From assembly GCA_902825875.1 (NCBI GenBank), contig CADECP010000038.1, positions 1,915-65,914 of the forward strand: a stretch of 64,000 nt of DNA, read 5' to 3'. Positions 6,655-38,661 of the stretch are shown piece by piece. The position numbers and the translations under genes were made by a program. The DNA comes from an uncultured Acidobacteriota bacterium (GTDB taxonomy: Bacteria; Acidobacteriota; Blastocatellia; RBC074). The notes under the pieces were generated by a model, which was not told the origin of the DNA, made no database searches, and was given only the letters and a program-made list of their open reading frames with translations. The stretch's first letter is position 1; each line of letters starts with the position of its first letter.

Positions 6655-9600
6655 TTAGAAGATGATCTTTCCGGCCAATTGAATGTGGCGCGGATATGCC
6701 ACTTGCGTGTTGCCCGCGTTGCGCGGGAACAGGCTGCCGAAATTGCGATCATCCGGGTTGTTGGTGAAGTGTTGCACTCCGTACGAGTAGGTGTTCGTGA
6801 AGTTGAACATCTCGACGCGGAACTGGAAGCCGATCTTTTCCGTGATCTTCGTCATCTTGTTGAATGACAAATCGGCGCTCGGCGGCGAATGCAACCGAAC
6901 GGTTGAGCTGCGGAACGACGTGAAGCGCGGCGCGAAATTCGGCACACGAATCATGTCCACGTTCGCCAGCGAACAGCCTTCCAGATTGGCGCTGAAGCTT
7001 TGCAATGCCAGCGTTCCGTTATCGAGCATGCGCGCCGCACACACCGAACGAACAGCAGGATTATTCCGATCCGCGTAAGTGCGGAAAGCCCAAACCTGAT
7101 CCGCGCCTTTCCAGTCAATGTTCTTCAGATAAGCATCCGGGTTGATCCACTGAATGTTTCCGTTCAAATCCCACGGACGGCCTGATTGCCATTGCATAAT
7201 CAGGCTGGATTGCCAGCCGCTGAAGATTTTGCTCAGGAATCCGTTTTTGAAGTTCAGGAGTTTCTGACCTTCGCCGAACGGCAATTGATAAACCGCGCCC
7301 ACCGTAAACCTGTGCGGACGGTCGGCCAGATACAACCCGCGTTGTTTGATGCCTCGCTGCAAATCGTTGAATCCCCATTCTTCGATTTGCTTGGAGAAGG
7401 TATAGGTTGAGGTAATGTTCAACCCACGAGTGGCGCGTTTTTCAAACGTCACCTGCAAGGAGTTGTAATCAATGCGTCCATCGTTGCGCGTGACTTCGGT
7501 GATGCCGCCGAAATGCGGATACGGACGCGCCAGGTTGAAGCGAGACAAGCCCGTCGCCGTGAAGTGATTGGTTCCGGCAAACGGAGCCAATCCGCGGAAC
7601 GGATTCGGCAGTTGCTCATTGCAGAACACCGGATTGCCGCCTTCCAGCGGATTGCATTTTTGGCGGAACGCCAGGTCGGGTTCGTTGAATGGGCGAGTGG
7701 TTTGCAGCTTCAACGTGCGGTTGCCGACGTAGGAAATTTCCAGCTTAGATTCCCAAGGCAGTTGATACTGGAAGCCCAGCGAAAACTGGTGAACGTAAGG
7801 AACCTGGAACTGCGGATTGACGAAGTTGAATCCACGTCCGAGGAAGGTTGATGCTCCCCCAGCCGCTCCAGCCGGAACCGTGATGCCGGTTGGGAACGGA
7901 TTGCTCAGGATGTCTCCGATTGGCGTTCGCCCGCCATCGTTCGAGTTAATGACCGGTGTGGTGATCTGGAAGCCGTTGAATTGCAGGTAATCGTTGTTGG
8001 GATTGACAAAATACAATCCCCAGCCGCCACGCATCACCAACTTGTCTTTGAGCAAGTAAGCGAAACCGAGTCGCGGCTGAATGTTGTTCCAGTCAACGTC
8101 CGCCGCAGTGCGCGGAATGTCGCCGACGCCAGCGAAGTTCAATCCGCCTTTCAATTGCGGCAAATTCGGGAACTGCGTTCGATTGACCAGCGAGTTGGCT
8201 GGATTGGTGATGTTCGCGTCGAATCCGCGATTCAGACGGTCATACCGTTCGTTAGGCGCAACGTTGACATCCCAACGAAGTCCCAAATTGATCGTCAGCC
8301 GGCGGTTAAACTTCCAATCGTTCTGGAACCACGGCGCGTAATACTTGCCAAGCGTCGTCGGGAAGAGGTTGTAATCCGATTGGCCGCCGACATAACCCAG
8401 CAAGAACGAAGCGATGGAATCGCCGGTGTTCGGGTCGCCCTGATCGAAACGCGATTGCGTGAAGCCGCGCGTTCCGGTCAGCAGGAACGGGCTGCCTTCG
8501 TTGCGTGTGATGAACTGCGTCCAGCGCATGTCCACGCCCGCGCGCCAGGTTTGCGATCCGCGAATCCATGTGATGTTCGGATGCGAGGCAATGGTGTTGG
8601 TGATGTTGTTGCCGCGGAATCTGCCCAGCGCGTTGTAATCGGCAAAGGTGTAGCGCCCGAAAGACGTGATGCCGGGAACCTGACTGACCAGGCTTGGTGA
8701 GAAGCCAAGCGTCGTTTTGTCGAAACCGACGTTGCCTTCGCCAAATCCGTCTTCGATGAAGCGGTTGAAGGAGGCGCGGAAGTTGAAGATGAACGTTGGC
8801 GAAAACGTCGCCAAGTGATCAACCACAAACGCGTCGTTGATACGTTTGAACGGTTGTTGACCATCTTGCCCGGGGCCGCTGAACACGCCGTTGACGTTGC
8901 GGTCTTCCGTGCGGTCGTTCTGGGCGAAGCGGACGTACATCCGATGCCTCTCATTGAATTGCTGGTCAATTTTGAAGACATAGTTGAAGAAAGCATCTGT
9001 TGCCGGAATTGGCAGGAAAAGATTGCTGCGAGCATATCCCGCCACCGGGTCGCTGCGATTGGCTTTCGGTTGAAAACCGAGAATCTTTTTCGCAATCGGA
9101 TTGATGCGGCTTGCGGGAATTTTGTTACCCGGGAACGGATCGCGCCGCCATCCACCCGGTGCTGTCGAATCAGCACGACCGGTCAACGGATCGTAAATGA
9201 TGATCGGGCGTCCGGCTCCATCAACCAACTTGCTGAAATCGCCGTCCAGCATTTCCGGCATTGGCACGGACAAAGCAAGCGGCGAAGGAACGCCTTCGCG
9301 GTAACCTTCATAGTTGAACATAAAGAAGGTCTTGTCTTTGCCGTTGTACAGCCAGGGGATGTAAACGGGTCCTTCGACCATGAATCCGTATTGGTCGAGC
9401 CAGTGCTTTGGCCTTGGGCGATTGGTGGCATTGAGCCGAAAGTCGTTGGCATCCAGCCATTCGCGGCGCATGAATTCATAGACCGAACCGTGCAAAGCGT
9501 TGGTTCCGCTCTTCAAGTTGACGTTGATGATGCCGCCGGTAGTTTTGCCGTACTGGGCGTCATAGGTGTTCGTCATGATCTTGAAATCCTGCACCGAATC

Positions 9601-10254
9601 CACCGGCGGAACATAAGCGATGTTGTTGCCGCCCGCTTGTCCGTTGTTCGGAGCGCCGTCCAGCAGGAATTCGTTGCCGCGCGTCTGGCTGCCGTTGATC
9701 GTCCATTCGGCAATTGCGCCGTTGTCGAAAGGACGTTGCCAGATCGAAGCGCCGTAAAAATTCACGCCGGCGGTCAGCACGCCCAGCATAAACGGATTGC
9801 GCGCGTTGAGCGGCAATTCGACGACTTTCTGACGGTCAATGACGCCGCCACGATCCGCCGTGGCGGTTTCAATGACGGCAGCTTCGCCGGTGATCGTCAC
9901 GCTGTCGCTGACGTTGCCTGTTTCCAGCGCAAAGTCGAAAGTCGCCGCCTGCGAAATCACCAATTCGATGTTGTCGCGCGTGGCTTTTTTGAAGCCATTG
10001 GCCTCGACTGTGATTGAATACGCGCCGGGACGCAGAAAGGGAACTCTGTAATTGCCCTCGCTGTTGGTCGTTGCCGTCGAAACTTCGTTGGTTCCGATGT
10101 TTTTGACGGAAACTTGTGCGTTGGGGATTGCGGCTCGGTTGGCGTCAGTGACGCGACCAGTGACGGTCGCTCGAAAGTCTTGAGCCAGTGCCGAAGCAGT
10201 AAGTAGCAGAAAGCTGAAAACCAGAAGAGTTGAGAGTCGGAAAGTCCTGGTCAT
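6655..10254 (-). CDS. TonB-dependent outer-membrane receptor with an N-terminal carboxypeptidase-regulatory-like domain.
   Basis: A signal peptide is followed by ATVTGRVTD...GAYSITVEANGFKK, which is the CarbopepD_reg fold. The long beta-barrel body ends in a terminal Phe. This architecture is common among Acidobacteria TonB-dependent receptors. Confidence 0.75.
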   Translation of the reverse strand: MTRTFRLSTLLVFSFLLLTASALAQDFRATVTGRVTDANRAAIPNAQVSVKNIGTNEVSTATTNSEGNYRVPFLRPGAYSITVEANGFKKATRDNIELVISQAATFDFALETGNVSDSVTITGEAAVIETATADRGGVIDRQKVVELPLNARNPFMLGVLTAGVNFYGASIWQRPFDNGAIAEWTINGSQTRGNEFLLDGAPNNGQAGGNNIAYVPPVDSVQDFKIMTNTYDAQYGKTTGGIINVNLKSGTNALHGSVYEFMRREWLDANDFRLNATNRPRPKHWLDQYGFMVEGPVYIPWLYNGKDKTFFMFNYEGYREGVPSPLALSVPMPEMLDGDFSKLVDGAGRPIIIYDPLTGRADSTAPGGWRRDPFPGNKIPASRINPIAKKILGFQPKANRSDPVAGYARSNLFLPIPATDAFFNYVFKIDQQFNERHRMYVRFAQNDRTEDRNVNGVFSGPGQDGQQPFKRINDAFVVDHLATFSPTFIFNFRASFNRFIEDGFGEGNVGFDKTTLGFSPSLVSQVPGITSFGRYTFADYNALGRFRGNNITNTIASHPNITWIRGSQTWRAGVDMRWTQFITRNEGSPFLLTGTRGFTQSRFDQGDPNTGDSIASFLLGYVGGQSDYNLFPTTLGKYYAPWFQNDWKFNRRLTINLGLRWDVNVAPNERYDRLNRGFDANITNPANSLVNRTQFPNLPQLKGGLNFAGVGDIPRTAADVDWNNIQPRLGFAYLLKDKLVMRGGWGLYFVNPNNDYLQFNGFQITTPVINSNDGGRTPIGDILSNPFPTGITVPAGAAGGASTFLGRGFNFVNPQFQVPYVHQFSLGFQYQLPWESKLEISYVGNRTLKLQTTRPFNEPDLAFRQKCNPLEGGNPVFCNEQLPNPFRGLAPFAGTNHFTATGLSRFNLARPYPHFGGITEVTRNDGRIDYNSLQVTFEKRATRGLNITSTYTFSKQIEEWGFNDLQRGIKQRGLYLADRPHRFTVGAVYQLPFGEGQKLLNFKNGFLSKIFSGWQSSLIMQWQSGRPWDLNGNIQWINPDAYLKNIDWKGADQVWAFRTYADRNNPAVRSVCAARMLDNGTLALQSFSANLEGCSLANVDMIRVPNFAPRFTSFRSSTVRLHSPPSADLSFNKMTKITEKIGFQFRVEMFNFTNTYSYGVQHFTNNPDDRNFGSLFPRNAGNTQVAYPRHIQLAGKIIF

Positions 10255-10512
10255 TGGGTAACCTCACTTTGCTCTGGGCGAGTTGTTCGCCGATGAGTTG
10301 ATTGAAAAACCGGAGCGGAGAACTCACGGCAGCGGAATGCGCCACAGGTTAAACTGTGGTGTACAACAAACTACAAGAATCAAAATTCGGATCAGAAAGG
10401 CTCAGATTATGAGCGAGTGGTAAAACCAATTTAGGCGGGCGGATTATGTTTCGTGATGGTCATACCGTCAAGCTATTGGCGACGAGGAATCACAAAAAAA
10501 CAAAAAAGCCGA

Positions 10513-10555
10513 AACACGCCTGGCAAGTTCGATTCAGAAAACCAGCCAGGCGTGC
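10513..10555 (-). terminator. Rho-independent terminator for the small minus-strand gene.
   Basis: The CACGCCTGG/CCAGGCGTG stem is followed, on the minus strand, by a TTTCGGCTTTTTTGTTTTTTTGTG T-tract. Confidence 0.5.
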
Positions 10556-10574
10556 GGCTGTGGAGCGCGAGAGC

Positions 10575-10973
10575 TTATTGGGTGATTTTTTTTCGTTTCG
10601 GTGCAGGCGCGCGATGCTGAGCGGCAGGCAGTTCAGTTTGTTTGCCAGTCGCCGAAGTCGCCGAAGTTGCCGAAGGCGAAACTTGGGCGATGACTCCCAA
10701 ACTGGAAAGGCCAAATCCGACCAGGGTCAGAATGGTCAAAAACAATGCCACGAAAACCGCAAAGCTGAACATGCCTTGCATAAACCGAATCGGACTTGCG
10801 GTTCGATATGATTTTGTTGGCTGTATGTTCGAGGTCTGGCGGTTCAGGAATTCCTGATACCGTGTGAGATATCTGGAAAAACCGGTTTGAGTTTCGGCAG
10901 TTGATTCAGTGGCGGAACCGAATTCGGTTGCGCCGGACACATCAGACAAAATGGACAGTCGTTGTAATTTCAT
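10575..10973 (-). CDS. Hypothetical single-pass membrane protein of about 132 aa.
   Basis: A GGAAGGAGG ribosome-binding site lies 7 nt upstream of the ATG (MKLQRL...). There is one hydrophobic helix (FSFAVFVALFLTILTLVGFGL) and a Ser/Thr/Ala-rich tail, with a terminator downstream. Confidence 0.45.
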   Translation of the reverse strand: MKLQRLSILSDVSGATEFGSATESTAETQTGFSRYLTRYQEFLNRQTSNIQPTKSYRTASPIRFMQGMFSFAVFVALFLTILTLVGFGLSSLGVIAQVSPSATSATSATGKQTELPAAQHRAPAPKRKKITQ

Positions 10974-11501
10974 CTCAAGCCTCCTTCCTGGCATGACAAG
11001 TGAACAAAACGCGAATGGCCCACGAGCAAATTGGAAGACACACTGCGGGGCGAATCGGGGCGTTATCTGGGGCAAGGAAGCCGTACACGAGATTTGGGGC
11101 TAAAAGTCGCTGGCTTTATCGTCGCTTAGGGCGCGATTGGTATTTCAGTTGGTTTTCAAATCTTCTCGGATGCGTGTGTGTTGAATGTGCCAAATGGCTG
11201 AAGCAGCCTTCTCGGTGATAAGCCGATAGGTGCTTTTGTGCTTTGAGATGCTTTTCAAATTTTAGGGGGAAATGAATTAACCGCTTCGATTGACGGGCGG
11301 ATCATAAAAAGCCGCGACTCATCTGTCAACGAAGAGTCGGGAAAAGTCTTGGAGGGTGGGGAAAGTTTTTGGAAGCCGGACTTGCCCGGACTTCCCAAGA
11401 CTTATGACGGTTTGCATACACAAAACTTTGAATTACTATGCGGCCTCGCCTTGGAATTCCTTCCGCAAAAAAGATTGAACACAGTTTGGAGGTTTTCAGC
11501 A

Positions 11502-25432: not shown

Positions 25433-25473
25433 AAAAGCGCGAGCGTTGAGTGATTTCAATGCTCGCGCTTTTT
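25433..25473 (+). terminator. Rho-independent terminator of the tricorn paralogue 3 gene.
   Basis: AAAAGCGCGAGCGTTGAGTGATTTCAATGCTCGCGCTTTTTATTT is a GC-rich hairpin followed by a T-tract. Confidence 0.6.
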
Positions 25474-25492
25474 ATTTGTCGGTCGCCAAATC

Positions 25493-25520
25493 TTGAAAGT
25501 TTTCGTTCACCCGATACAAT
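25493..25520 (+). promoter_or_regulatory. Sigma-70-like promoter for the DUF692 gene.
   Basis: TTGAAA, a 16-nt spacer and TACAAT lie about 8 nt upstream of the ATG at 25528. Confidence 0.4.
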
Positions 25521-25527
25521 CCGGTTT

Positions 25528-26409
25528 ATGCCAACATTTGCAGAAAAAGTAAGCCGGTTGCCGCGCCTGGGTGTCGGCCTTTCGGGTGAGTTCAACATTG
25601 CCGCCAAAGGCATGAATGTGAATTGGGTGAAGGAAGATTACCCGGACTTGATTCACTTTTATGAGTACGGCGGCGATTTGGAACGTGGCCTGGACGATGG
25701 TGTTCGCCAATGGGCGGCGAACGGGTTGCCGACGACGTATCACTTTCTGGACATCAACCTGGAAGAGAAGATTGATCTCGATGCGCGCTGGATTGCCGAA
25801 ACGAAACGGCTGGCCAAGGAGATCAATGCGGCGTGGTTGTGCGGAGACGCCGGGCGCTGGCATTTCGCCCAACGCGAACGCGGTCACGGCGTATTGATGC
25901 CTCCGATCCTGTGCCGCGAATCAGCCATCGAAACCGCCGAAAGCATAGCCGAAATCGAAGCAGCCACCGGAATGACGGTGTTGCCGGAAAATCCTCCGGC
26001 GGTGATTTACCTGGGCGATTTGCACATTCTGGATTACTTCGCGCTGGTCGCCGACAAAGCCGATTGCGGATTGTTGCTGGATTGCGCGCATCTGGCGATT
26101 TTTCAGCAAACGCGCAACTTGTCGCCGCTCACCGGCCTGGACAACTTCCCGCTGGATCGCGTCGTTGAAATTCACGTCGCGGGTGGAGCTTTCGCCGAAG
26201 TCGAAGGTTACGTTTACATCGAAGACAATCACTCGCCCGAACCTCTGCCAGCCACTTGGGAAATCGTCGAATACGTTCTGCCGCGCGCGAAAAACCTGAA
26301 AGCCATTGTCTTTGAATGCGAACACAACCAGCCGGAAGAATGTCTGCCGGTGTTCGAGCGATTGAATTCGCTGTTTCCCGCCAATCTGGAATTGAGGGCC
26401 GCCGTCTGA
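25528..26409 (+). CDS. DUF692-family protein (MNIO: multinuclear non-heme iron oxidative enzyme; MbnB/TglH/BufB-like).
   Basis: The N-terminal LGVGLSGEF and the central ...LDRVVEIHVAGG... strand match the conserved DUF692 TIM-barrel signatures. The protein is about 294 aa from the ATG at 25528. Confidence 0.75.
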   Translation: MPTFAEKVSRLPRLGVGLSGEFNIAAKGMNVNWVKEDYPDLIHFYEYGGDLERGLDDGVRQWAANGLPTTYHFLDINLEEKIDLDARWIAETKRLAKEINAAWLCGDAGRWHFAQRERGHGVLMPPILCRESAIETAESIAEIEAATGMTVLPENPPAVIYLGDLHILDYFALVADKADCGLLLDCAHLAIFQQTRNLSPLTGLDNFPLDRVVEIHVAGGAFAEVEGYVYIEDNHSPEPLPATWEIVEYVLPRAKNLKAIVFECEHNQPEECLPVFERLNSLFPANLELRAAV

Positions 26410-27275
26410 TGAGCCATCACACGTTGCAAAAACTGATTCCCCGAATGCTTTTTGACGAAGCGTTTACAGCGTCGGTGTATTCCGAACCGGAAAAGACGTT
26501 GGCTGGATTTGATCTGACGGCAGCCGAGCGCGCGCAATTGCTCAGCGTAGATCGTCGCGCGTGGCGATACGATGCTTTGCGAAAGCGGCGCATGCTGCGA
26601 ACGCTGGCCGAAGAATTCAAAAATTCGACGACGATCATTTTGGCGGAAACTCGTTCGCTGGCTTCGCTGGAAACGTATTTTTCCAGTCGTTTTTTTCATT
26701 CGGCGATTCAGGATCGCGGTTCGCTGGCGCGCGGCTTTGCAGAATTTTTGATGGATGGTTGCCAAACTGGCGCGTGGACTTCGCCGCAGATTGCCGATGT
26801 CGTTCGGTTGGAACAGGTGATGGCTGGATGTCGCCGTTCGCTGGCGCGAGAAGGTTACAGCAAAGCTCCTGAATTGCCGTCAAAGATTGACCCTTCCAAG
26901 CGCGTCAAACTCGCCGCCGGGCACGATGTCGCCAGCTTTCAGGGAAAGGTGATCGAAACGATTCAGCATGTCGAAAAATACCTGTTTGAACTCAGTCTGA
27001 TGCCGGCGATGGCGTTGTGCGATGACGCGCCGCGACTCAGCGGATTGCCGCCGGTGGATTCCCAGCGGAAGCTGTATTTTCTGTTTCACCCCAGCGCCAC
27101 CGGAATTTCGATGACCAGCTTGGACAAAGCCGAGTATCTGGTGTTGTACGACGCCAAACACCCTGTCGAAATCAACTCTCTGTTTGTGCGCCACCCTGAC
27201 AAACCTAACTCTACGCCAACCGATACCATAGTGCTGGAATGGCTGGAAGACGGCGCGTTGCGGTTGTCGGATTGA
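26409..27275 (+). CDS. Probable DUF2063-like partner protein of the MNIO enzyme (MbnC/TglI/BufC-like).
   Basis: Its ATG overlaps the DUF692 stop (TGATG), so it is translationally coupled exactly as in known MNIO-partner pairs. The N-terminal LQKLIPRMLFD resembles the DUF2063 start. The call rests mainly on gene context. Confidence 0.45.
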   Translation: MSHHTLQKLIPRMLFDEAFTASVYSEPEKTLAGFDLTAAERAQLLSVDRRAWRYDALRKRRMLRTLAEEFKNSTTIILAETRSLASLETYFSSRFFHSAIQDRGSLARGFAEFLMDGCQTGAWTSPQIADVVRLEQVMAGCRRSLAREGYSKAPELPSKIDPSKRVKLAAGHDVASFQGKVIETIQHVEKYLFELSLMPAMALCDDAPRLSGLPPVDSQRKLYFLFHPSATGISMTSLDKAEYLVLYDAKHPVEINSLFVRHPDKPNSTPTDTIVLEWLEDGALRLSD

Positions 27276-28670: not shown

Positions 28671-28715
28671 AAAAAGCGCGAGCCTTGAGCATAGACTCAA
28701 AGCTCGCGCTTTTTT
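28671..28715 (+). terminator. Rho-independent terminator of the esterase gene.
   Basis: AAAAGCGCGAGCCTTGAGCATAGACTCAAAGCTCGCGCTTTTTTG is a hairpin followed by a T-tract. Confidence 0.6.
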
Positions 28716-28729
28716 GAATTGGTTTCCGG

Positions 28730-29132
28730 CTACATTTCAGAATCGTGCCTGCCGACGTAAAGTCGTCCGTCGTAATCCACGATGCCGAGTTTCAATTGCT
28801 GCATCCAGCCATGACGACCGAGCACGTTGCGAGGGAAATTGGGCATTGCGGCGAAATAGGCGACAACCTCTAACTCAAACCCCAGTGCAGAAAGCGTTAC
28901 CGGATGCCCATAGGCAACGAAAGAACCCATCGCCGTAGAAATTCGCTCAAGAGTTCCGCTTTCAATAATCAATCCCAATTCCTCTCCGTGCTCCCGCTTG
29001 AAAATGCAAAAACTGGAGCCGCAATCAAGCTTTGCTGAAATTTTGAGCGATTTTTCGGCAAGCCTTAACTCTACCGGCAATGTGATGCCAGCCTCGCCGG
29101 GGTCGTATTCGTGGATGATTTCAAAAGAAAGC
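28730..29132 (-). CDS. Hypothetical protein, possibly a degenerate retropepsin-like fold.
   Basis: The start is probably the GTG at about 29130, which has a GGAGG ribosome-binding site, rather than the overlapping ATG at 29260. LDCGSS resembles a degenerate D-T/S-G-A aspartyl-protease motif. Confidence 0.35.
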
Positions 29133-29144
29133 GTCGGCTGCACC

Positions 29145-29540
29145 TTACCATCCTCCAAACGGCAAATCGTCGGTTGGCAAAACCTGCTCAACAAAAGGAG
29201 ATAACAATCCGGCTTCTCTGGCGGCCTGATAAACCTTGCGGGCGTCAACCCCGTGAGCAATCAGACGTTCACCATCCAATGCCACCCATTGCCCGATGTA
29301 TTCGCTGCGATGAGCTTTCAGCCAATTCAATTCGAGTGAAAGATCAATCGGCTCTACGCGCTTGATCGGTTTGGATTTTGGTTCCGTTGGATCGGCGATT
29401 GTTTGTCCGTTCATCGTTGAAAGCACGCCAACCTGTCGCAAGGTTTCAGTAAGTTCGACATCGTGGCCAAACAGGCTGCGCGGAATGAACGCGCCGTCTT
29501 CGGTGATGGTGATTTGATTGTCCGCTATTGTTTCCAACAT
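29145..29540 (-). CDS. DUF5678-like small protein.
   Basis: The C-terminal half (EYIGQWVALDGERLIAHGVDARKVYQAAREAG) matches the DUF5678 pattern. Confidence 0.4.
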   Translation of the reverse strand: MLETIADNQITITEDGAFIPRSLFGHDVELTETLRQVGVLSTMNGQTIADPTEPKSKPIKRVEPIDLSLELNWLKAHRSEYIGQWVALDGERLIAHGVDARKVYQAAREAGLLSPFVEQVLPTDDLPFGGW

Positions 29541-29599: not shown

Positions 29600-31105
29600 T
29601 TACTTGCCGCTGGTTTCTCCCAACTCTTTTAGCACAGCATCCAGATTGGCTTTGACAAGTTTCGTGTTCGGATGCTCATCGCCAAGAAACTGGCGAAGGA
29701 TGCCGAGTGAGCGTTCCAAGAGATTTTTGGCTTGTTGTAATTCGCCCAAATCTCGGAGTACGCAAGCAAGACCATTGAGACGATTGGCGATCTTCGGGTG
29801 GTTTTGACCGAAGGCTGCTTCGTCAATTTCCAGCGAACGTTCGAGAAGGTTTATGGCTTTTTTAGTCTCGCCCAAATCGTTTAACACGGAAGCGAGATTG
29901 TTAAGTCCAGTAGCAACATTAGGGTGATTGGGGCCGAAATTAACTTCATCAATTTTGAGCGATCTCTCAAGTAGAATTTTTGCCTGTTCCAATTCGCCCA
30001 AATTTTTTAGTACAGAAGCCAAATTGTTTAGTTTGGTGGCAACCAGAGGGTGGTCGTTTCCTAAAGATTGTTCGTCAATTTTGAGGGCACGTTCAGACAT
30101 GGCTTTGGCTTGTTGTAATTCGCCCAAATCTTTTAGCACTGAAGCGAGGTTGTCGAGATGAGCGGCAACATTAGGATGGTTAGCCCCGAATGTTTCAGTG
30201 GCTATATTGACAGCACGTTCTAGTAAGATTTTGGATTCTTGTAACTCCCCCATGTCTTTGAGTGCGTAAGCCAAATTATTAAGCCGAGTCGCAACGTCGG
30301 GATGGTCAGTGCCAAAAGCTTTTTCAGATATTTTTAGTGCTTGCGTTAAATAGTTACGTGACTGCTGGTACTCCGCTCTTTGCAAATATAGTCTTCCAAG
30401 CCGGTCGAGCAGGTCGGATTGTTCAACGGCTTCGGCTTGGGAAAGATTATTTGGATCGGAATTGGATTGAGCCTTGGCCAGCAATTCCTTGAGTACGTCT
30501 TCCCAACGGTCGCGTTCGTCTTTGCTCATCCAGCGTTGGTCTTCAGTGTCCCGAATTGTCTCCAGTGTTTCGCGCGAAGCTGCCGCTCGCATTCGTTGGG
30601 GAACTTCCAGGTCATAAACTCCGCTGTACCAGTCGTATAAATCCGGCGCGTTTCTGGCCATCAGGGTCAGCGCGTATTCCGGCAGCCAGAACACCATCGG
30701 TCGCCGCATCCTTTGAAAAAAGCCGCGCCGCCAATTCAATTCCTGAGTCGTAGCCCAAACTCGATCTTCGTCGCGCGAAGGCAGCAGGTTTTCCAAACCG
30801 GTGATGAAGACAACGGCGTCTTCTGAAACGCCTTCCAGTTTGGTTTCGACAAAGCCGTCCACCGACGGGCGAGTTTTCTGATCCATTTCAGCCAGCGGGC
30901 TGGTGTCCACAACAACCAGCGGGCGGGTTAAGCGCGAGCGAATGGCTTCGGTCAGTTTAGCTCTGTAAGTGGGAACGTTGCAGTGGGCGAAGTAAAGCGA
31001 AAAGCCTTTGACTCGCTTCAACGTCTCAATGAACCGCGCGAGGTCGGGCTGTTCGGCGAACAGTTGAGCGTGAGCGTCTCTCTCGGTTTCGTTCGGTTCT
31101 GCCAT
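29600..31105 (-). CDS. TPR-repeat protein (kinesin-light-chain-like TPR_10/12 repeats) with a roughly 170-aa non-TPR N-terminal domain.
   Basis: It carries seven to eight 42-aa repeats of the form A..LNNLA.VL.DLGEL..A. Its start codon lies 2 nt after the stop of the upstream ATPase gene. Confidence 0.7.
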   Translation of the reverse strand: MAEPNETERDAHAQLFAEQPDLARFIETLKRVKGFSLYFAHCNVPTYRAKLTEAIRSRLTRPLVVVDTSPLAEMDQKTRPSVDGFVETKLEGVSEDAVVFITGLENLLPSRDEDRVWATTQELNWRRGFFQRMRRPMVFWLPEYALTLMARNAPDLYDWYSGVYDLEVPQRMRAAASRETLETIRDTEDQRWMSKDERDRWEDVLKELLAKAQSNSDPNNLSQAEAVEQSDLLDRLGRLYLQRAEYQQSRNYLTQALKISEKAFGTDHPDVATRLNNLAYALKDMGELQESKILLERAVNIATETFGANHPNVAAHLDNLASVLKDLGELQQAKAMSERALKIDEQSLGNDHPLVATKLNNLASVLKNLGELEQAKILLERSLKIDEVNFGPNHPNVATGLNNLASVLNDLGETKKAINLLERSLEIDEAAFGQNHPKIANRLNGLACVLRDLGELQQAKNLLERSLGILRQFLGDEHPNTKLVKANLDAVLKELGETSGK

Positions 31106-31107
31106 AG

Positions 31108-32415
31108 TTATTTTGAAGTTTCAGGGTTAGCCAGAAATTCTCGCATGCGCGGCAGGCTGCGAACCATCGGGTGAACATCTGCCCATCTCAGACCATTTTC
31201 GTATTCGTGAACCAGGCGCAAATTCAGCAGTCGGCTTTCGCTTTGTTCGCCGGACAATCGTTGCGTGTTGGAAATTCTGGCCAACGTGGGCAAATCTTCA
31301 TCGCGCAGGATGCGGTCGAATTCTTTGGCCATTCGGCTGGTGGCATCTTCCACATCGTCGTCATTGATTTTGTCGGGGAAGTTGTCCGCAGAAAGTCGAA
31401 CCAGTCGCAATAAATCTCTGACCGAACCGCCACACATTGCAATCAATTGATTGACCGATTCGGGATTTTCAAACACGTCTTCAATGGCAACACGCGAACT
31501 GACGACTTGATGCAGTGCATTGATGCCTTCTTCGTTGTTTTGATTGACCATTGGCAAAATAACCAACTCATCGGAGTAGGCGTGCCCCAGATTGACGTTG
31601 AACGCCAAAAAGATCGGCAGCGTGTAAATGATGTGGCAATCGGGTGATTTCAATTGGTCAGCGTGACGAATGAAAAGTACCGATTGATTAGACGTGCCAT
31701 CTTCTTCTCGGTAGTGCATTTTTTCCAGCCCATCCACAATCACGACCAGATCGTGAAAATTGCCGTCGCGCACCAGATTCCGGGCATTACCGATGAAGAC
31801 GTTCAACCGTTCAATAAAATCCCCAAGTTCGTTATCCAATCGTTGGCGGATTTCTGAGCGGCGATTGCTGGAAGCCTTAAGGTGGCTGGTAACCATCGCC
31901 AAGGCTCGTGCTAGTAATGGCAATTTGGAATCAATGCCGAATTCAGTTTTGAGTGAAGCCTCGCCTTCGATTTTTTGCTCAATGATCAAAATTTTTTCGG
32001 CAAACCATTGATCGAGGCTTTCGCGCAATTTGGCGTCAATCTCAATTTTTGCGTCACTTAGCTCTTTTTCAATTGCCTTGGTGATTGCTACCAGCACATC
32101 TTGGTATCTGATGTCCGCCAGATCGAGCACATCTTCCACGTCGAAGTAGACGACGAAATACCCTTCTTTCCTGAGTTGATCCTGTAACTGGAAAAGTTCG
32201 GTGGATTTACCGCAACCGCGATGCCCGCTGACCAATTGATGATGGTAACGACCAGGTTCGGCGTGTTTGATCTTGTTCGCAATCTTTTTGGCAATGTTGC
32301 TGCGGATGCCGCGAGCTTTGGTTAGGTCAACAAAACGTTTGTCGCCGGGTTGCAAAGGAATATCGGGGTGACAGGCGGAATAAGCTTCGTCCACTGTGTG
32401 AACCGGGTAGATCAT
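31108..32415 (-). CDS. P-loop NTPase with ABC-like Walker A/Walker B spacing.
   Basis: Walker A is GHRGCGKST and Walker B is LVVIVDGLEK, about 190 aa downstream. This spacing is typical of ABC/AAA_15-type ATPases rather than STAND NTPases. The likely start is the ATG at 32415 (MIYPVHT). Confidence 0.65.
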   Translation of the reverse strand: MIYPVHTVDEAYSACHPDIPLQPGDKRFVDLTKARGIRSNIAKKIANKIKHAEPGRYHHQLVSGHRGCGKSTELFQLQDQLRKEGYFVVYFDVEDVLDLADIRYQDVLVAITKAIEKELSDAKIEIDAKLRESLDQWFAEKILIIEQKIEGEASLKTEFGIDSKLPLLARALAMVTSHLKASSNRRSEIRQRLDNELGDFIERLNVFIGNARNLVRDGNFHDLVVIVDGLEKMHYREEDGTSNQSVLFIRHADQLKSPDCHIIYTLPIFLAFNVNLGHAYSDELVILPMVNQNNEEGINALHQVVSSRVAIEDVFENPESVNQLIAMCGGSVRDLLRLVRLSADNFPDKINDDDVEDATSRMAKEFDRILRDEDLPTLARISNTQRLSGEQSESRLLNLRLVHEYENGLRWADVHPMVRSLPRMREFLANPETSK

Positions 32416-32512
32416 AATTGCCTCTGAGTTTGGGATTCGATGTGAAACCGGCGGGATTATACAACGCGGCAAAGGGCTTGTCGTTAATGGCGTTTGTGGC
32501 ACAATCGCGCCG

Positions 32513-33928
32513 ATGATTGACGCGGCTGACAAACAATTCACTCTTCAATTCGATGCCGGGACTTTGCTGCTGGACGGCGCGGATCGTTCGTTCGAGGCTC
32601 CGCCGCCGTTTGAATGGGACGATAGAGTTAAGCGTTGGCGCGCTCAGGCCATTGCCTATCGCCAAATCGTTACAGAATTAACCCGCCGAAAAATCGCTCA
32701 CGAAGACAAAGCTCGCCAATACATCGAATTCCAATTCAAAGCCGAACTGACCGCCGAACCTCGCCCGTATCAGGAAGAATCCATCGCCGCCTGGAAAAAA
32801 GCCGGGCGACGCGGAACTGTCATTTTGCCAACCGGAGCGGGCAAGACTTTTGTCGCTCAGATGGCGATTGAAATGGTCAGTCGTTCGACGCTGGTCATTG
32901 TGCCTACGATTGATTTGATGAATCAGTGGTATGACTTGCTGCTGTCTTCGTTCAACGCCGAAATTGGTTTGATCGGCGGAGGGTATTTTGAACGCGGCGC
33001 GATTGTCGTCACGACTTACGCTTCGGCTTTTCGGTTTATGGAGCGAATGGGCGGAGAATTCGGTTTCATCATCTTCGACGAATGCCACCACTTGCCGAGC
33101 GATGTTTATCGTTACGCTGCGGAAATGGCGATTGCTCCGTTTCGGCTGGGGTTGACCGCAACTCCCGAACGCGCCGACGGCGGCGAAGAATTATTGGAAC
33201 GGTTGATCGGGCCGATTGTTTATCGCAAAGAAGCTCAGCATCTGGCCGGAGAGTTTCTGGCCGATTACACGACCGAAAAGATTTCCGTCGTGCTGTCGCC
33301 CGCAGAGCGCGAGCTTTACGAAAGCGAACGAAATATCTTTCGCCAGTTCACGCGCGAAAAGGGAATTTACTTCGGCGATCCGCGCGGCTGGCAGCAGTTC
33401 ATTATGATGAGCGCGCGCAGCCAGGAAGGCCGCCGCGCAATGCAGGCTTACCGCGAATCCAAGCGCATCGCTCTGGGCAACGATGCCAAAGTTCACGTGC
33501 TGGAAAAGTTGATGCAGCGTCATCGCCGCGAACGACTGATAGTTTTCACGGCGGAAAACGAAATGGTTTATCGCATCTCCGAACAGTTTTTGGTTCCGGC
33601 CATCACGCACGAAACTCCGATCAAGGAGCGTCGAATGTGGCTGGAAGCTTTCAACAAAGGCGACGTGCTGACTTTGGTGACTTCAAAAGTCTTGAACGAA
33701 GGCGTCAACATTCCAGAAGCTTCGGTGGCTGTGGTGCTTTCTGGTTCCGGGTCTTCGCGCGAACACATTCAACGGCTGGGACGAATTTTGCGAAAACAGC
33801 CGGACAAACAAGCAGTGCTTTACGAAGTCATCACGGCTCAGACCGCCGAAGAAAACATCAGCCAACGCCGCACAGACGCCAGACAGTTTCAACGCGATCA
33901 AGCTCTGGGCGACGATTGGATGCAATGA
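32513..33928 (+). CDS. XPB/ERCC3-like superfamily-2 DNA helicase.
   Basis: Helicase motif I (ILPTGAGKTFVA), motif II (DECHH) and motif III (GLTATPER) are present, together with RED-like and C-terminal helicase motifs. The protein is 471 aa. Confidence 0.75.
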   Translation: MIDAADKQFTLQFDAGTLLLDGADRSFEAPPPFEWDDRVKRWRAQAIAYRQIVTELTRRKIAHEDKARQYIEFQFKAELTAEPRPYQEESIAAWKKAGRRGTVILPTGAGKTFVAQMAIEMVSRSTLVIVPTIDLMNQWYDLLLSSFNAEIGLIGGGYFERGAIVVTTYASAFRFMERMGGEFGFIIFDECHHLPSDVYRYAAEMAIAPFRLGLTATPERADGGEELLERLIGPIVYRKEAQHLAGEFLADYTTEKISVVLSPAERELYESERNIFRQFTREKGIYFGDPRGWQQFIMMSARSQEGRRAMQAYRESKRIALGNDAKVHVLEKLMQRHRRERLIVFTAENEMVYRISEQFLVPAITHETPIKERRMWLEAFNKGDVLTLVTSKVLNEGVNIPEASVAVVLSGSGSSREHIQRLGRILRKQPDKQAVLYEVITAQTAEENISQRRTDARQFQRDQALGDDWMQ

Positions 33929-33951
33929 TTGAGATGGCAAAAAACTTTGTC

Positions 33952-34013
33952 CACGAAGGGCACGAAGGGCACGAAGGGCACGAAGGGCACGAAGGGCACG
34001 AAGCTTCACGAAG
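33952..34013. repeat. (CACGAAGGG)5 tandem 9-mer repeat with two degenerate copies.
   Basis: Five perfect 9-nt units span 33952-33996. They are followed by CACGAAGC, TTCACGAAG and a CACGAAG/CTTCGTG hairpin at 34006-34050. Confidence 0.8.
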
Positions 34014-34083
34014 AAAATTCGTCAAAACTTTGTGTTCCTTCGTGTTCTTCGTGGATGTGGTTTTACTTTGCAGTTGAAGAAAA

Positions 34084-35286
34084 ATGCTCACAGCAGATTT
34101 AGCCATTAGTTTTCAACGCGGCGATAAAGTAACTCCGCGCCGAATGGAGCCGGACGCCGGGAGTCTTCAAATTGCCGAAGACCTGATCTGCATTTTTGCC
34201 GAACAGCTTCAGCATCGCCGGTCGGAACTTGATGCCGAGTTGAACGAATACGTCGGCACAGGAACCGATTACAGGATCATTCGCGGATTGATAAAGCTGT
34301 TGCTGGACGGTTGCGAATTTGAAACCGGTGGAGCCATCGAACCGGCGGAACTTCGCCAACGACTTTTCCTCAAAGCCAAACATCATCATCCCGTCACGCC
34401 TGCCATTCGCCAACAGTTGATAGCCGAGCTTGCGGCGGAGTTGGCGGTTGAATCCGAAACCATTTCCGACGGATTGTTTGCAGACCTCAGCGACAACCAG
34501 CGATTGATTTCGTTTGAAGCTCCGACGCCAACGGGTTTGATCACGCAATACAATCTGGCTCAGGCGCAGGCTTTGCTGTATCGCTGCGTTGAATTGAAGT
34601 TGACCGTCACTCCGCAAGACGCCGCTGGGTATCGGCGATTGTTCGCGGCCATCAAACGTTACAACCTGATTCACACCGTGAAAGGAAGCGCGGAGACTGG
34701 ATATTTGGTGACTCTGAGCGGGCCGTTGTCGCTGTTTCATCGTTCGCAAAAGTACGGCATTCGGATGGCGGTGTTTCTTCCCGCCTTGCTGGAATGTAGC
34801 GGTTGGCGATTGCGCGCCGAAATCGAAGGCAAGCGAGGTAATGCGTTTTACGAACTCAACAGCGAGCAGCAAAACCTGTTGCCGCGTCAGCAATTCAACT
34901 GGATGGAAAGCGCCGACCAATCAGAAGTGCTGAACAAATTTCTGACGGCTTGGGCGCGATTGCAAAACGAATGGCAGGCGACGGTTTCAACCGAAGTGAT
35001 TGATTTGGGCGGAACGGCTTTTGTGCCAGATGCTGTGTTGGAAAATGCCGACGGGCAAAAAGTGTTTGTCGAATTTTTCGGCTTCTGGACGCCGCGATAT
35101 TTGCAGGATCGGCTGGCGGAATTTGAACGCAGCGGCTTCACAAATTTCGTGCTGCTGGTTTCCGAAGAGTTATGCGGCAGCCGCGAAGCTCCGACGAATT
35201 TGCCGCCGAACGTCGTCAGTTACAAAACTTCGCCGGATGCGCGATTGGTGCTGACGGCGATTGGTTGCGACGAAAAACGGCTGTGA
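34084..35286 (+). CDS. Bax1-like (DUF790) nuclease partner of XPB.
   Basis: The call rests mainly on context: a ~400-aa protein sits immediately downstream of an XPB homologue, as in archaeal and bacterial XPB-Bax1 pairs. No catalytic motif could be verified by eye. Confidence 0.45.
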   Translation: MLTADLAISFQRGDKVTPRRMEPDAGSLQIAEDLICIFAEQLQHRRSELDAELNEYVGTGTDYRIIRGLIKLLLDGCEFETGGAIEPAELRQRLFLKAKHHHPVTPAIRQQLIAELAAELAVESETISDGLFADLSDNQRLISFEAPTPTGLITQYNLAQAQALLYRCVELKLTVTPQDAAGYRRLFAAIKRYNLIHTVKGSAETGYLVTLSGPLSLFHRSQKYGIRMAVFLPALLECSGWRLRAEIEGKRGNAFYELNSEQQNLLPRQQFNWMESADQSEVLNKFLTAWARLQNEWQATVSTEVIDLGGTAFVPDAVLENADGQKVFVEFFGFWTPRYLQDRLAEFERSGFTNFVLLVSEELCGSREAPTNLPPNVVSYKTSPDARLVLTAIGCDEKRL

Positions 35287-35329
35287 TACTCTTTTGATCG
35301 TTTTCAAAGCATTGCCAACCGATAACAGC

Positions 35330-35740
35330 ATGCATCAGGTCATAGAGTTCTATCAGCAGAATTTGCAGCTTGCGCGCGAAACCGGAAACCGGCGCGACGA
35401 AATGAGTGCGCTCGCCAGTTTAGGACGCGCCCACGAAGCTCTGGAAGAGCGCGACAAGGCGATTGAGTTTTACGAACTGGCGCTGAAAATCGCTGGCGAT
35501 CTGGGCGATGGCCGCGCCGAGCGACAAACGCTCAAGCATTTGAACGACGCCAGAAATCCAAAACCTGCCAAATCAGCAAAAACAGTTTCAAAAACTTCTG
35601 CTTCACGAAAAGCGGCCAAAAAACGCTCAACGACCGCCGCCAAAAAAAGTCGGAAAGCTTCCCCCAAACAATACGAGCGAAAGGTTGGGCGGCTGATGGC
35701 GGAACAACAAACTTCTTCGCCATCGAACAAAGAAGAATGA
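35330..35740 (+). CDS. Small TPR-like protein with a Lys/Ala/Ser-rich, histone-H1-like C-terminal tail.
   Basis: It has TPR-like helices (ALASLGRAHEALEERDKAIEFYELALKIAG) followed by KPAKSAKTVSKTSASRKAAKKRSTTAAKKSRKAS. Confidence 0.45.
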   Translation: MHQVIEFYQQNLQLARETGNRRDEMSALASLGRAHEALEERDKAIEFYELALKIAGDLGDGRAERQTLKHLNDARNPKPAKSAKTVSKTSASRKAAKKRSTTAAKKSRKASPKQYERKVGRLMAEQQTSSPSNKEE

Positions 35741-36010
35741 CCGGCAAGGCTGAGTAATTTTAAGTTTGAAGTGCAGGAAACGTTTACCGGCAGAAAAATG
35801 CGGACAAAAAAACTTCGAAATCTTTTTGCCCCCAATCTTTCGCCAAAAAAAGTCGGAAAGCTTCTCCCAAACAATACGCCCGAAACGTTGCGCGGCTGAT
35901 AGCGGAGCAACAAACTTCTTCGCCGTCGAACAAAGTGCACGAAACGTTTACCGGCAGAAAAATGCGGACAAAAAAACTCCGAAATCTTTTTGCCCCAATC
36001 TTTCTGCCAA
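35644..36010. repeat. Tandem duplication of about 160 bp that includes the last ~95 nt of the upstream gene.
   Basis: Unit A (35644-35738) recurs at 35846-35937 and unit B (35778-35845) recurs at 35938-36010, each at roughly 90% identity. Confidence 0.7.
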
Positions 36011-37431: not shown

Positions 37432-38661
37432 ATGATTTTCTGTCAACGCTGCAAAAAAGCTAACCCGAACGATGTGGATTTTTGCCAGGAATGTGGCACG
37501 TATCTGCTGGTGATTTCGCGTCCGTACAACGCGGGCGGATTCGAAGTTGGCGATTCGCTGGAAGAGCATTTGCTGGAACGTGTCAGCGCGTTGGAATCGG
37601 CGCTCAATCGGGCCAACGAACGTTTCGAACAGTTGTTGGATTTGGCGCAGCAACAGGCGACCGGCAGTTTTTACGATCACATGATGCTGGAAGCTCTGAC
37701 GGAATTATTGACCGAAATGCGCGCGGTCAACCCGGAAGAACTGGAACAGCGTTGGCGCAACCGTGTCGTTCGTCATTACGAAGAAACCGCCGAACGCGAA
37801 CGGCTGGACGAACGGTGCGAGCAGATTATTTCCGCTTATCGCGGAACCGAGCGCGAAGAGTTCATTGATCTGGTGGAAGAAGGCACGTTGTTGATTACCG
37901 AAGGTCGTACGCGGCGCGGGTTGCGGTTGCTGGAAAGTGCGCTGGCGATGGATGAAAACAACGCTGAGTTGAGTTTCACCGTCGGCGAATACTACTTCCA
38001 TTTGGGCAAATCGCTGGATTCGGCGATCAATTTGCGTCGTGCGTTGGACATTCACGCCGATCATTTCGGCGCGCGGTTGTTGCTGGGTTTGCTCAGCGGC
38101 GATGAAGGCGAATCGGAATCGGCCAAGATTCATTTGCAGCGTGCGTTGACGATGGACGACAACTCGTTTGCCGCGCATTACGGCATGGGACGTTTGCTGG
38201 CGCGCGAAGGAAAATTGGATCAGGCGTTGGTGCATTTGAAACGCGCGTTGTCGCTCAACCCCACGCCGGAGATGTATTACCTGGTTGGCCGCACGTATTG
38301 GGAGCAGGGAAGCGCAGACAAGGCGCTCAAGCATTTGCAAAAAGCCGTCCGGCTCGATCCGCGATTCGATGTTGCGCAATACAGTCTGGGATTCATTTAC
38401 TGGCAATCGAATCGCACAAACGAAGCACGCGAACATTTCCGCGCCGCTTACGAAATCAATCCGCAGGAAACCGATTACCGCGCCGCCGTCGAAGCCCACG
38501 CCGGAGATGAACTGCCGCGCTTGCCTGGCTTCGGCTGGTCGAGTTTGTTTTCGCGCCGCAAAACAAAAATGGCGGAAGCTCGCTTTGTCGAATTGCTCTG
38601 GCGCGACCTCAACATCATTTCAGTCTCTCCTGCCGCATTGCGTAAAACCCCTCGCAAGTGA
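37432..38661 (+). CDS. Zinc-ribbon plus TPR-repeat protein.
   Basis: An N-terminal [19 protein letters not shown] zinc ribbon is followed by multiple TPR-like repeats. Confidence 0.55.

Follow-up and report, generated by a model that had tools for sequence, protein, structure and literature searches.

Introduction

The nSTAND2 two-gene system appears, by analogy, to be the closest described system in logic to the locus discussed here. It encodes first an active STAND protein with a winged helix-turn-helix (wHTH) and then an inactive nSTAND2 module joined to a wHTH, TPRs and either a HEPN or a GT4 domain, and it has been predicted to counter invaders (Kaur, Iyer, Burroughs and Aravind 2021, eLife; PMC8195603). 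The locus lies in a stretch of 64,000 nucleotides from an uncultured Acidobacteriota bacterium (assembly GCA_902825875.1, contig CADECP010000038.1, positions 1,915 to 65,914), and this whole stretch is referred to below as the window. Two genes on the minus strand make up the locus. Gene 1 (31108-32415) encodes an ATPase of 435 aa, and gene 2 (29600-31105) encodes a partner of 501 aa with a putatively dead AAA+ domain at its N-terminus (the N-domain), a helical linker and a TPR array. Both open reading frames (ORFs) were described in a first-pass annotation of the window; they are present where it placed them, and so are all the motifs that it quoted from the two proteins.

Single-chain STAND and NLR proteins, such as Avs, bacterial NACHT proteins, Apaf-1/CED-4 and MalT, also combine an NTPase switch and a winged helix, and they carry sensor repeats of the TPR or WD40 type at the C-terminus. 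The locus in the window differs from them in that switch and sensor lie on two polypeptides, which would be linked by the extra dead AAA+ domain. The reading favoured here, and held with about even confidence, is that the locus encodes a self-contained two-protein NLR/STAND-like sensing system, most likely one that serves in conflict with invading genetic elements.

Conservation of the gene pair

The ATPase and its partner form a tightly coupled, conserved and self-contained cassette that is found in both Bacteria and Archaea. A scan of one genome per species found a relative of the ATPase in at least 527 species, among which filamentous and multicellular taxa predominate, and the best 80 loci from these species were used to analyze co-occurrence and neighbours. 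The 80 loci come from Cyanobacteria, Chloroflexota, Acidobacteriota, Gammaproteobacteria (Thiotrichales, Beggiatoa-like organisms and Methylococcaceae), Desulfobacterota, Myxococcota, Planctomycetota, Methanothrix, Halobacteria and others. A gene that opens with the N-domain lies directly 3' of the ATPase gene in 77/77 testable loci, made up of 64 loci found by BLAST and then by a hidden Markov model (HMM) of the N-domain and 13 in which the partner runs off the end of the contig. The other three of the 80 have at most 140 nt beyond the ATPase gene and fall outside the testable set. The two genes overlap or are separated by a gap within about 60 nt at the other loci, and the identities of the ATPase and the N-domain to the proteins of the window co-vary over the loci (Spearman 0.60). 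The view of the pair as a tightly coupled, uncharacterised module has thus held up, as it is kept in every locus where it could be sought and is given no named system by Pfam, PADLOC or NCBIfam.

In the window the two genes are separated by a spacer of 2 nt (31106-31107, minus strand), and the junction reads TAA-ct-ATG. The gap is as first reported, and it is consistent with translational coupling of the ATPase and the partner. It is also the one feature in favour of a single STAND gene that was broken by a frameshift, a case that the first-pass annotation had itself raised, or of an assembly artefact. This explanation is scarcely credible and is refuted by the two-gene arrangement of all 77 loci, which belong to many phyla and show various overlaps and gaps, as well as by the partner itself, which opens with a complete AAA+-like domain of its own and not with the continuation of a STAND protein. 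Gene callers working on independent assemblies also give separate products of 435 and 501 aa.

Beyond the pair, no third conserved gene emerged from all-against-all clustering of the ORFs in the 80 loci. The 124 immediate neighbours match 196 Pfam families, each of them in at most six loci, and the flanks are heterogeneous. A conserved third gene or effector was rejected after the 124 flanking proteins had been compared with Pfam and PADLOC, where nothing was recurrent beyond lineage-specific synteny. Copies of the pair are carried by cyanobacterial megaplasmids, with several per strain, and one copy, on the Acaryochloris marina plasmid pREB2, is flanked by NACHT, integrase, HicAB and RelE genes. 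In the Nostoc clade, signalling proteins of the PAS/GAF/cyclase kind are among the neighbours. A phage origin was considered and rejected: a tblastn search of 50,697 phage records and a search of the PHROG families gave no match, and BFVD returned only generic AAA+/KAP folds.

Several unusual arrangements were observed. Distant homologues of the ATPase are present on three plasmids of Nostoc sp. UHCC 0302 (NZ_CP151100-CP151102), in five places in all. A locus from an uncultured bacterium (L017) has two N-domain-TPR genes within 4 kb, at 5358-6491 and 9331-11040. The extra N-domain-TPR gene (377 aa) is upstream of a gene for a 447-aa protein that the family HMM does not recognise as a homologue of the ATPase. 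In a metagenome-assembled genome (MAG) of Acidobacteria gp4 (L037, 7995-9386) the ATPase is split into two ORFs of 152 and 294 aa, both of which match the family HMM; this is a frameshifted pseudogene or a sequencing error.

The ATPase

More than 330 homologues of the ATPase were found, with E-values down to 1e-271, and gene 1 is therefore not a chance ORF. Some of the homologues are named 'KAP family NTPase' in NCBI annotation. An alignment of 25 sequences (A1) was made from Acidobacteriota, Chloroflexota, KSB1, Thiothrix, Gallionella, Methylococcales and a Methanosarcinaceae archaeon, and the motifs GHRGxGK[ST]TE, VIVDGLEKM, SGGxxRD and ExxNGxRWAxxHP are invariant in it. The Walker A motif of the window's ATPase, GHRGCGKST (residues 64-72; 32200-32226, minus strand), contains the invariant residues G64, H65, G67, G69, K70 and T72. 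The Walker B motif, VVIVDGLEK (residues 224-232; 31720-31746, minus strand), contains invariant V224, I226, D228, E231 and K232. Where STAND proteins have a GxP motif, the family has an invariant GGxxRD (G329, G330 and R333), which resembles the sensor-2 arginine of AAA+ proteins rather than GxP.

The AlphaFold model of the ATPase (per-residue confidence, pLDDT, of 84.9) comprises a conserved N-terminal segment, a P-loop alpha/beta core with a helical insert, a helical lid and a winged helix. The insert is located between Walker A and Walker B (residues ~100-220; 31756-32118, minus strand, from the secondary structure of the model) and is predicted to be soluble. It has low pLDDT at residues 145-165, and no transmembrane segment was detected in it, the maximum 19-residue hydropathy being 1.2. 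The winged helix at the C-terminus (residues ~385-435; 31111-31263, minus strand) is also placed by the model and carries the invariant H415-P416 after a beta-hairpin. Foldseek matched the model to PDB structures of PAB2304 (2qen), SSO1545 (2fna), ORC1/4/5, Cdc6, CED-4, mS29/DAP3, RdrA (8hr8_A) and TnsC. The architecture of STAND proteins, a P-loop nucleotide-binding domain (NBD) followed by a lid and a winged helix, is present in the model. The matches to PAB2304, SSO1545, CED-4, ORC/Cdc6 and mS29 span its whole length, and those to ORC/Cdc6, PAB2304 and CED-4 cover the lid and the winged helix.

The ATPase had first been described as ABC/AAA_15-like, with a distance of about 190 aa between Walker A and Walker B. 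The measured distance is about 160 aa, and this spacing is the sole point in favour of an ABC-type defence pair like Septu, PARIS or Gabija, in which a TPR protein would be the unusual partner. Such a pair is highly improbable. An LSGGQ-like ABC signature is absent from the ATPase, none of the ABC-class families AAA_15, AAA_21, SMC and OLD was matched in Pfam up to E=1 or in PADLOC, and no ABC protein is among the top 50 Foldseek matches of the model, which has an AAA+/STAND topology with lid and winged helix. The long spacing is explained by the inserted helical module, which is of the KAP/RdrA kind and is not an ABC trait. Motifs, profiles and fold all disagree with an ABC assignment, and the predicted fold and weak profile matches place the ATPase with the STAND, KAP and ORC proteins. 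Since it is not of ABC type, the contrast that was first drawn with Septu, PARIS and Gabija is beside the point, and the pair should rather be compared to STAND/NLR proteins and to published two-gene systems of active and inactive STAND proteins such as nSTAND2. PADLOC, as had been proposed as a check, was run on the pair and assigned neither protein to Septu, PARIS, Gabija or any other named system.

Among solved structures, the top sequence-profile match of the ATPase family is RdrA (8fnu_A, E 0.0036), whose entry bears the name 'KAP NTPase domain-containing protein'. Both Walker motifs and the insert between them are covered by the match. The context of Walker B in the ATPase, D-G-L-E-K, resembles the motif D-D-L-D-R, which Aravind et al. 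reportedly described for KAP proteins in 2004. The Pfam matches (AAA_16, nSTAND_NTPase5, ATPase_2, KAP_NTPase and ORC-CDC6-like) are all below threshold. No curated STAND profile scored above its cut-off for the ATPase (AAA_16, 29.6/32.6 bits; nSTAND_NTPase5, 22/34; nSTAND3, 13/27.2), and KAP_NTPase, whose alignment spans the insert, scored 17.1 bits against a gathering cut-off of 20 (E 0.0035). As judged from the model and the alignments, the ATPase is probably a minimal AAA+ switch module of the STAND/KAP/ORC type.

The partner protein

The N-domain takes up residues 1-170 of the partner (30596-31105, minus strand) and was defined from an alignment of 62 sequences (A3) as an AAA+-like alpha/beta core that lacks a P-loop. 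Its motifs follow the order strand, helix, strand, helix and a strand ending in G-L-E, then L-N-x-x-R, P-h-h-F-W-L-P-x-Y-A-L and A-P-D-F-W-x-W-x-S-G. Three residues, N124, R127 and D155, do not vary in the alignment. In the window's protein FSLYFAHCNV is found at residue 35 and VVFITGLENLL at residue 98. No Walker A motif is present in the N-domain: the sequence after strand 1 reads F-A-H-C-N-V-P-T-Y-R, and neither a glycine-rich loop nor a lysine is conserved there in the 62 sequences. Residues 1-170 match no Pfam family. The AlphaFold model (pLDDT 82) has a five-stranded alpha/beta core, for which Foldseek returned 213 PDB matches at E<=0.001. The top 50 are all AAA+ modules, with template-modelling (TM) scores of ~0.45-0.5, and the structural matches include the AAA+ domains of NSF/Sec18, p97, Rix7, proteasomal Rpt, TnsC and ORC3. 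The N-domain is thus predicted, from model and alignment, to be a dead AAA+ domain, which agrees with the first-pass view of a degenerate NTPase-like segment of about 170 aa.

The N-domain is not a chance feature of one protein, because an exhaustive profile search found it in 3123 representative proteins, 1238 of them at E<=1e-10. It is N-terminal in all the matches listed by that search. The exhaustive search was needed to reach this number, as word-indexed searches with the same query yielded no more than 5 and, later, 18 proteins. Elsewhere in the window the N-domain has no match.

A helical linker (residues 171-228; 30422-30595, minus strand), placed by the alignment and the AlphaFold model, connects the N-domain to the TPR array (residues 229-501; 29603-30421, minus strand). 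The array scores 210.6 bits with TPR_12 (2.6e-63), 188.6 bits with TPR_10 and 137.5 bits with TPR_NPHP3, and TPR families are matched by 62/62 aligned partners. The repeats are of the kinesin light chain (KLC) type, as had been noted at first; the count of eight has to be corrected, as there are six 42-residue units plus a C-terminal cap, and TPR_10 finds 6 stretches.

TPR proteins are common as co-chaperones. It could be asked if the pair is a machine for AAA+ remodelling whose TPR protein serves as co-chaperone or adaptor, and which assembles or disassembles a client protein complex by the logic of NSF and SNAP. The best structural matches of the N-domain are the AAA+ domains of NSF/Sec18, p97 and Rix7, and the SNAP profile is matched by 42/62 partners. 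SNAP matches are expected for any TPR array, however, and the ATPase resembles initiator and STAND switches with a winged helix rather than the unfoldases of the classic clade. The TPRs and the ATPase also undergo a fast mosaic change (see below) that would be unusual for a chaperone with a fixed client, and a remodelling machine is considered improbable.

The part of the partner that follows the N-domain varies between organisms. In the Acaryochloris marina plasmid pREB2 a partner of 1830 aa is encoded directly 3' of an ATPase that is 26% identical to that of the window; this partner contains the N-domain (E 5e-27), which is joined to TPR-like repeats and to WD40 repeats, at least 14 in number. 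A Parabeggiatoa partner has TPRs, TPR-S and a CHAT protease at the C-terminal end, and a Nostoc partner has TPRs and then a Uma2 nuclease domain in that position. Two metagenomic partners are also of interest. One (P0157) joins the N-domain to an intact AAA_16/NACHT-like NTPase and TPRs, the other (P0190) joins it to a GTPase-like P-loop domain, and the genes of both are preceded by overlapping ATPase homologues (hmmsearch E 1e-84 to 1e-89). At its simplest, the partner is a standalone N-domain gene of 153 aa, located 3' of a distant ATPase homologue on a plasmid of Nostoc sp. UHCC 0302. HEPN and GT4 effectors were not seen in the partners, in which CHAT, Uma2, WD40 and STAND modules are found instead. 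Because the varied modules all follow an N-domain, and the variants with fused modules each still follow an ATPase homologue, the N-domain is the constant element that accompanies the ATPase and the remainder of the partner is exchangeable.

Evolution at the chromosomal locus

Five relatives of the window's organism (L009, L083, L086, L088 and L003) keep the order Bax1-XPB, ATPase-partner and esterase, and all identities were measured against the proteins of the window. In L009 the identities are 94% for XPB, 58% for the ATPase, 83% for the N-domain and 69% for the TPRs. The corresponding values are 92%, 80%, 93% and 57% in L083, 91%, 91%, 70% and 56% in L086, where the partner has only 333 aa, and 86%, 58%, 67% and 45% in L003. 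L088 has 94% for XPB, 87% for the ATPase and 71% for the N-domain. The pattern is a mosaic, with ranges of 86-94% for XPB, 58-91% for the ATPase, 67-93% for the N-domain and 45-69% for the TPRs.

Substitution rates also differ along the locus. The synonymous divergence (dS) of the ATPase is 1.7-2.2 compared with 0.7 for the adjacent XPB, and the nonsynonymous divergence (dN) is 0.34 for the TPRs compared with 0.037 for the N-domain. The TPR array, in which the repeat number changes, is the fastest-evolving and least constrained part of the locus. Between the ATPase of L009 (8001-9320) and that of the window (31108-32415) dS is 2.15, and it is 0.68 for XPB. Since the ATPase of L009 is 58% identical while its XPB is 94% and its N-domain 83% identical, these values indicate that the ATPase allele alone was replaced there by recombination. 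From the mosaic identities together with the raised dS of the ATPase and dN of the TPRs, it follows that the two genes have been replaced or recombined independently of their flanks and of each other.

Two further observations concern these relatives. The MAGs L003 and L009 are labelled Heliomicrobium sp., a genus label that looks doubtful given the shared synteny and best protein matches labelled Acidobacteria. In other syntenic relatives the block of Bax1-XPB, cassette and esterase adjoins lpxD-fabZ-lpxA, OmpH and BamA genes.

Proposed function

A role in conflict is the one to which several features of the cassette point: its patchy, transfer-rich distribution, the plasmid-borne and multiple copies, the occasional placement among toxin-antitoxin (TA), integrase and NACHT genes, the modular C-termini of the partners and the mosaic alleles. 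A number of findings weigh against such a role. Matches to defence models among the 124 neighbours are few (BrxC, PbeA, PD-DExK, SoFic, PDC-S03, PDC-S68 and PDC-S70), so an enrichment in defence islands is not demonstrated. PADLOC and NCBIfam gave only insignificant P-loop matches for the ATPase and the partner. Most partners, including that of the window, have no recognisable effector domain, and in the window's own lineage the pair occupies a fixed chromosomal site beside XPB-Bax1. Region-averaged dN/dS is below 1 everywhere, and positive selection is not shown at that level. Finally, Arg127 of the N-domain lies in helix 3, away from the canonical position of an arginine finger.

Proteins that combine STAND and TPR regions include transcription regulators. 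Some of the findings just listed, the fixed chromosomal locus and the lack of effectors in most partners, would also suit a housekeeping or developmental switch in which the ATPase with its winged helix acts as a nucleotide-gated regulator of the MalT/AfsR type and its TPR partner detects a peptide or protein made by the cell itself. The partner matches TPR_MalT and the TPR regions of AfsR, the ATPase ends in a winged helix, and signalling proteins with PAS, GAF and cyclase domains are neighbours in the Nostoc clade. No target gene or neighbour is conserved over the 80 loci, however, and the patchy phyletic spread, the plasmid copies and the several copies per strain do not suit such a regulator. 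Alleles that are swapped by recombination beside conserved flanks, and partners that carry a fused CHAT, Uma2 or additional STAND NTPase module, also speak against it. A regulatory switch of this kind is considered rather unlikely.

For the favoured reading, a two-protein sensing system for conflict, the following mechanism can be proposed. We infer that the two proteins interact and form oligomers, that the TPRs act as a sensor and that the function is immune. Gene 1 would provide the nucleotide switch, a minimal NOD-type module made up of a P-loop domain with a KAP/RdrA-like helical insert, a lid with the sensor-2-like GGxxRD motif and a winged helix with the invariant His-Pro. Gene 2 would provide both adaptor and sensor. 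Its dead AAA+ N-domain would dock onto the ATPase and give a hetero-oligomer that mixes active with inactive AAA+ subunits, on the model of ORC, clamp loaders and the nSTAND2 pair. Once the TPR array has bound a ligand, the ATPase would be set free to assemble in an ATP-dependent manner. Some relatives may carry the output on the partner itself, where a CHAT protease, a Uma2 nuclease or a further STAND NTPase forms the C-terminal part. The TPR-only form may act by sequestering the bound target, by recruiting an unlinked effector or through DNA binding by the winged helix.

A bolder form of this proposal can be put forward only tentatively. The cassette may be a widespread and hitherto undescribed binary innate-immune receptor of both bacteria and archaea, in which a minimal NOD-type ATPase is combined with exchangeable TPR or WD40 sensors by means of a dedicated dead-AAA+ adaptor, forms mixed rings like those of ORC and mostly operates without a classical enzymatic effector. 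Members that lack an effector would then act by sequestering a protein of the invader or by DNA binding mediated by the winged helix.

If the pair does serve in immunity, a large family would be added to the NLR/STAND immune repertoire of prokaryotes, with at least 527 species and about 3100 representative proteins that contain the N-domain. It would also be a natural case in which the switch and the sensor of an NLR are carried by separate proteins and joined by a dead AAA+ domain, so that ligand sensing and nucleotide-driven assembly could be separated experimentally. How does an 'effector-less' STAND system give an output? The cassette poses this question directly. At one fixed site on the chromosome, ATPase and sensor alleles have been replaced in a mosaic fashion, which illustrates cassette-like diversification clearly. 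Should the pair turn out to have a regulatory role, it would still define a new and broadly distributed two-component nucleotide switch.

Gene layout and other features of the window

The ORF of gene 1 runs on the minus strand from ATG 32415 to TAA 31110-31108. Its longest form starts at GTG 32541 and ends at 31108, but ATG 32415 is most likely the start, and the GTG start is disfavoured, because homologues open with MxYPV at the ATG and because a promoter-like site and AGAGG precede it. The Shine-Dalgarno sequence AGAGG lies 5 nt 5' of ATG 32415 on the minus strand. The promoter-like site, ACGACA-17-TATAAT (32456-32484, minus strand), was found by a consensus scan 5' of the ATPase start and is a consensus match only, which does not imply functional proof.

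Two small accessory genes on the minus strand follow the pair. The first, 3' of the partner, encodes a DUF5678 protein (29145-29540), and the second encodes a weakly retropepsin-like protein of 137 aa (28730-29143/29260). In the first-pass annotation the two had been taken for a DUF5678 pair, of which one member is confirmed; its assignment of XPB-Bax1 (DUF790) to the other side was correct. The first terminator-like site 3' of the pair on the minus strand is a strong hairpin with a 20-bp stem followed by a T run (28671-28714). Since it comes only after the two small genes (29145-29540 and 28730-29143), these may share a transcript with the pair. The two small genes are present in L009 and L083 at 52-64% identity and absent in L086; they follow the partner in some of the five syntenic relatives and not in others, and they are not conserved together with the pair. 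They make up a variable small two-gene insert, possibly of a toxin-antitoxin-like nature.

Divergently from the ATPase, the window encodes an XPB helicase with an XPB_DRD domain and a Bax1/DUF790 nuclease (32513-35286). XPB-Bax1 was considered as a functional partner of the cassette and rejected, as the adjacency is confined to close relatives of the window and is not seen at other loci. The 155-nt spacer between XPB and Bax1 contains a perfect tandem repeat of CACGAAGGG x 5.8 (33952-34003), which reads as HEGHEG... and LRALRA... in spurious ORFs. No Rfam family was found in the 27-37 kb region of the window.

Other features of the window lie further from the pair. Two families of direct repeats at 35638-36010 form a local duplication of ~200 bp, with 95-nt copies that are 92% identical and 78-nt copies that are 90% identical. 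The duplication overlaps the 3' end of a 159-aa TPR ORF (35261-35740) and the spacer before a thiolase-like gene. A protein of 409 aa (37432-38661) combines a double zinc ribbon (DZR) at its N-terminus with TPRs of the classical 34-residue type and is unrelated to the partner of the cassette. At 25450-27275 a homologue of MbnB/TglH/ChrH-type (DUF692) modification enzymes of ribosomally synthesized and post-translationally modified peptides (RiPPs) is followed by a 319-aa protein without a Pfam match, and these genes may be a RiPP precursor-modification pair.

Comparison with known systems

RADAR is a two-gene defence system, and its ATPase RdrA is both the best profile match among solved structures and a Foldseek match of the ATPase described here. 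The partner in the present cassette, however, is not the adenosine deaminase RdrB, and the ATPase has ~435 aa compared with ~900 aa. No RdrB gene is adjacent to the ATPase, the N-domain-TPR gene is its sole conserved neighbour, and no RADAR model is among the PADLOC matches. KAP proteins differ in that the insert of the ATPase has no transmembrane helices and in that its KAP_NTPase score in Pfam is below the gathering threshold.

The likeness to single-chain STAND and NLR proteins extends beyond domain content. The repeats evolve fast in both, both are enriched in organisationally complex prokaryotes, and CED-4 is among the structural matches of the ATPase. The ATPase differs in that it has no N-terminal effector, its AAA_16 match is below threshold and GGxxRD takes the position of GxP. 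No Avs model was found among the PADLOC matches of the pair.

ORC/Cdc6, PAB2304 and SSO1545 are the top structural matches of the ATPase, with which they have the AAA+ core, lid and winged helix in common, and ORC is also alike in mixing active and inactive AAA+ subunits. Sequence identity to these proteins is only 10-14%, the cassette has no origin or replication context, and the TPR partner is specific to the family described here. The archaeal ATPase_2 proteins PAB2304 and SSO1545 are said to have been included by Leipe et al. in 2004 in the 'MNS' clade of STAND proteins. An 'MNS clade (Npun2340/2341 family)' is named in PMC8195603, and this name would fit two neighbouring genes in Nostoc. 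If that family is the same as the ATPase family described here, the latter was named in 2004 without a function. A literature search found no paper that describes this gene pair, and neither of two Aravind-lab papers lists the accession numbers of the Acaryochloris pair in its supplements.

The iSTAND and iSTAND2 ternary MoxR-vWA systems (Kaur et al. 2020, 2021) also have a catalytically dead STAND/AAA+ module as their constant part and are conflict systems of multicellular prokaryotes. They differ from the present cassette, which has no MoxR or vWA genes beside it and in which the dead domain has an active ATPase of its own as a partner.

The nSTAND2 operon remains the nearest comparison. Both systems are mobile two-gene operons whose first gene encodes an active STAND-type NTPase with a winged helix and whose second gene opens with an eroded NTPase-derived domain that is followed by TPRs and, in some members, by an effector. 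Hetero-oligomers are predicted for both. The inactive module, however, has ~170 aa here and corresponds to the NBD core only, compared with ~320 aa and NBD, lid and winged helix in nSTAND2, and most members of the present family have no HEPN or GT4 effector. The taxa also differ, as nSTAND2 is found mainly in Pseudomonas, E. coli and other proteobacteria. Homology was considered and rejected, since no profile similarity was detected for either protein: when the ATPase (A1) and N-domain (A3) alignments were compared by hhalign with 17 nSTAND2 sequences (supplementary file 11, PMC8195603), the probability was 0.3% with E ~0.2. By this comparison the nSTAND2 operon would be an analogue of the cassette and not a member of the same family, and analogy alone is claimed. 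A novel defence or signalling module, as the pair was first described, is still a reasonable proposal, and its novelty is reduced, not removed, by the published two-gene analogue.

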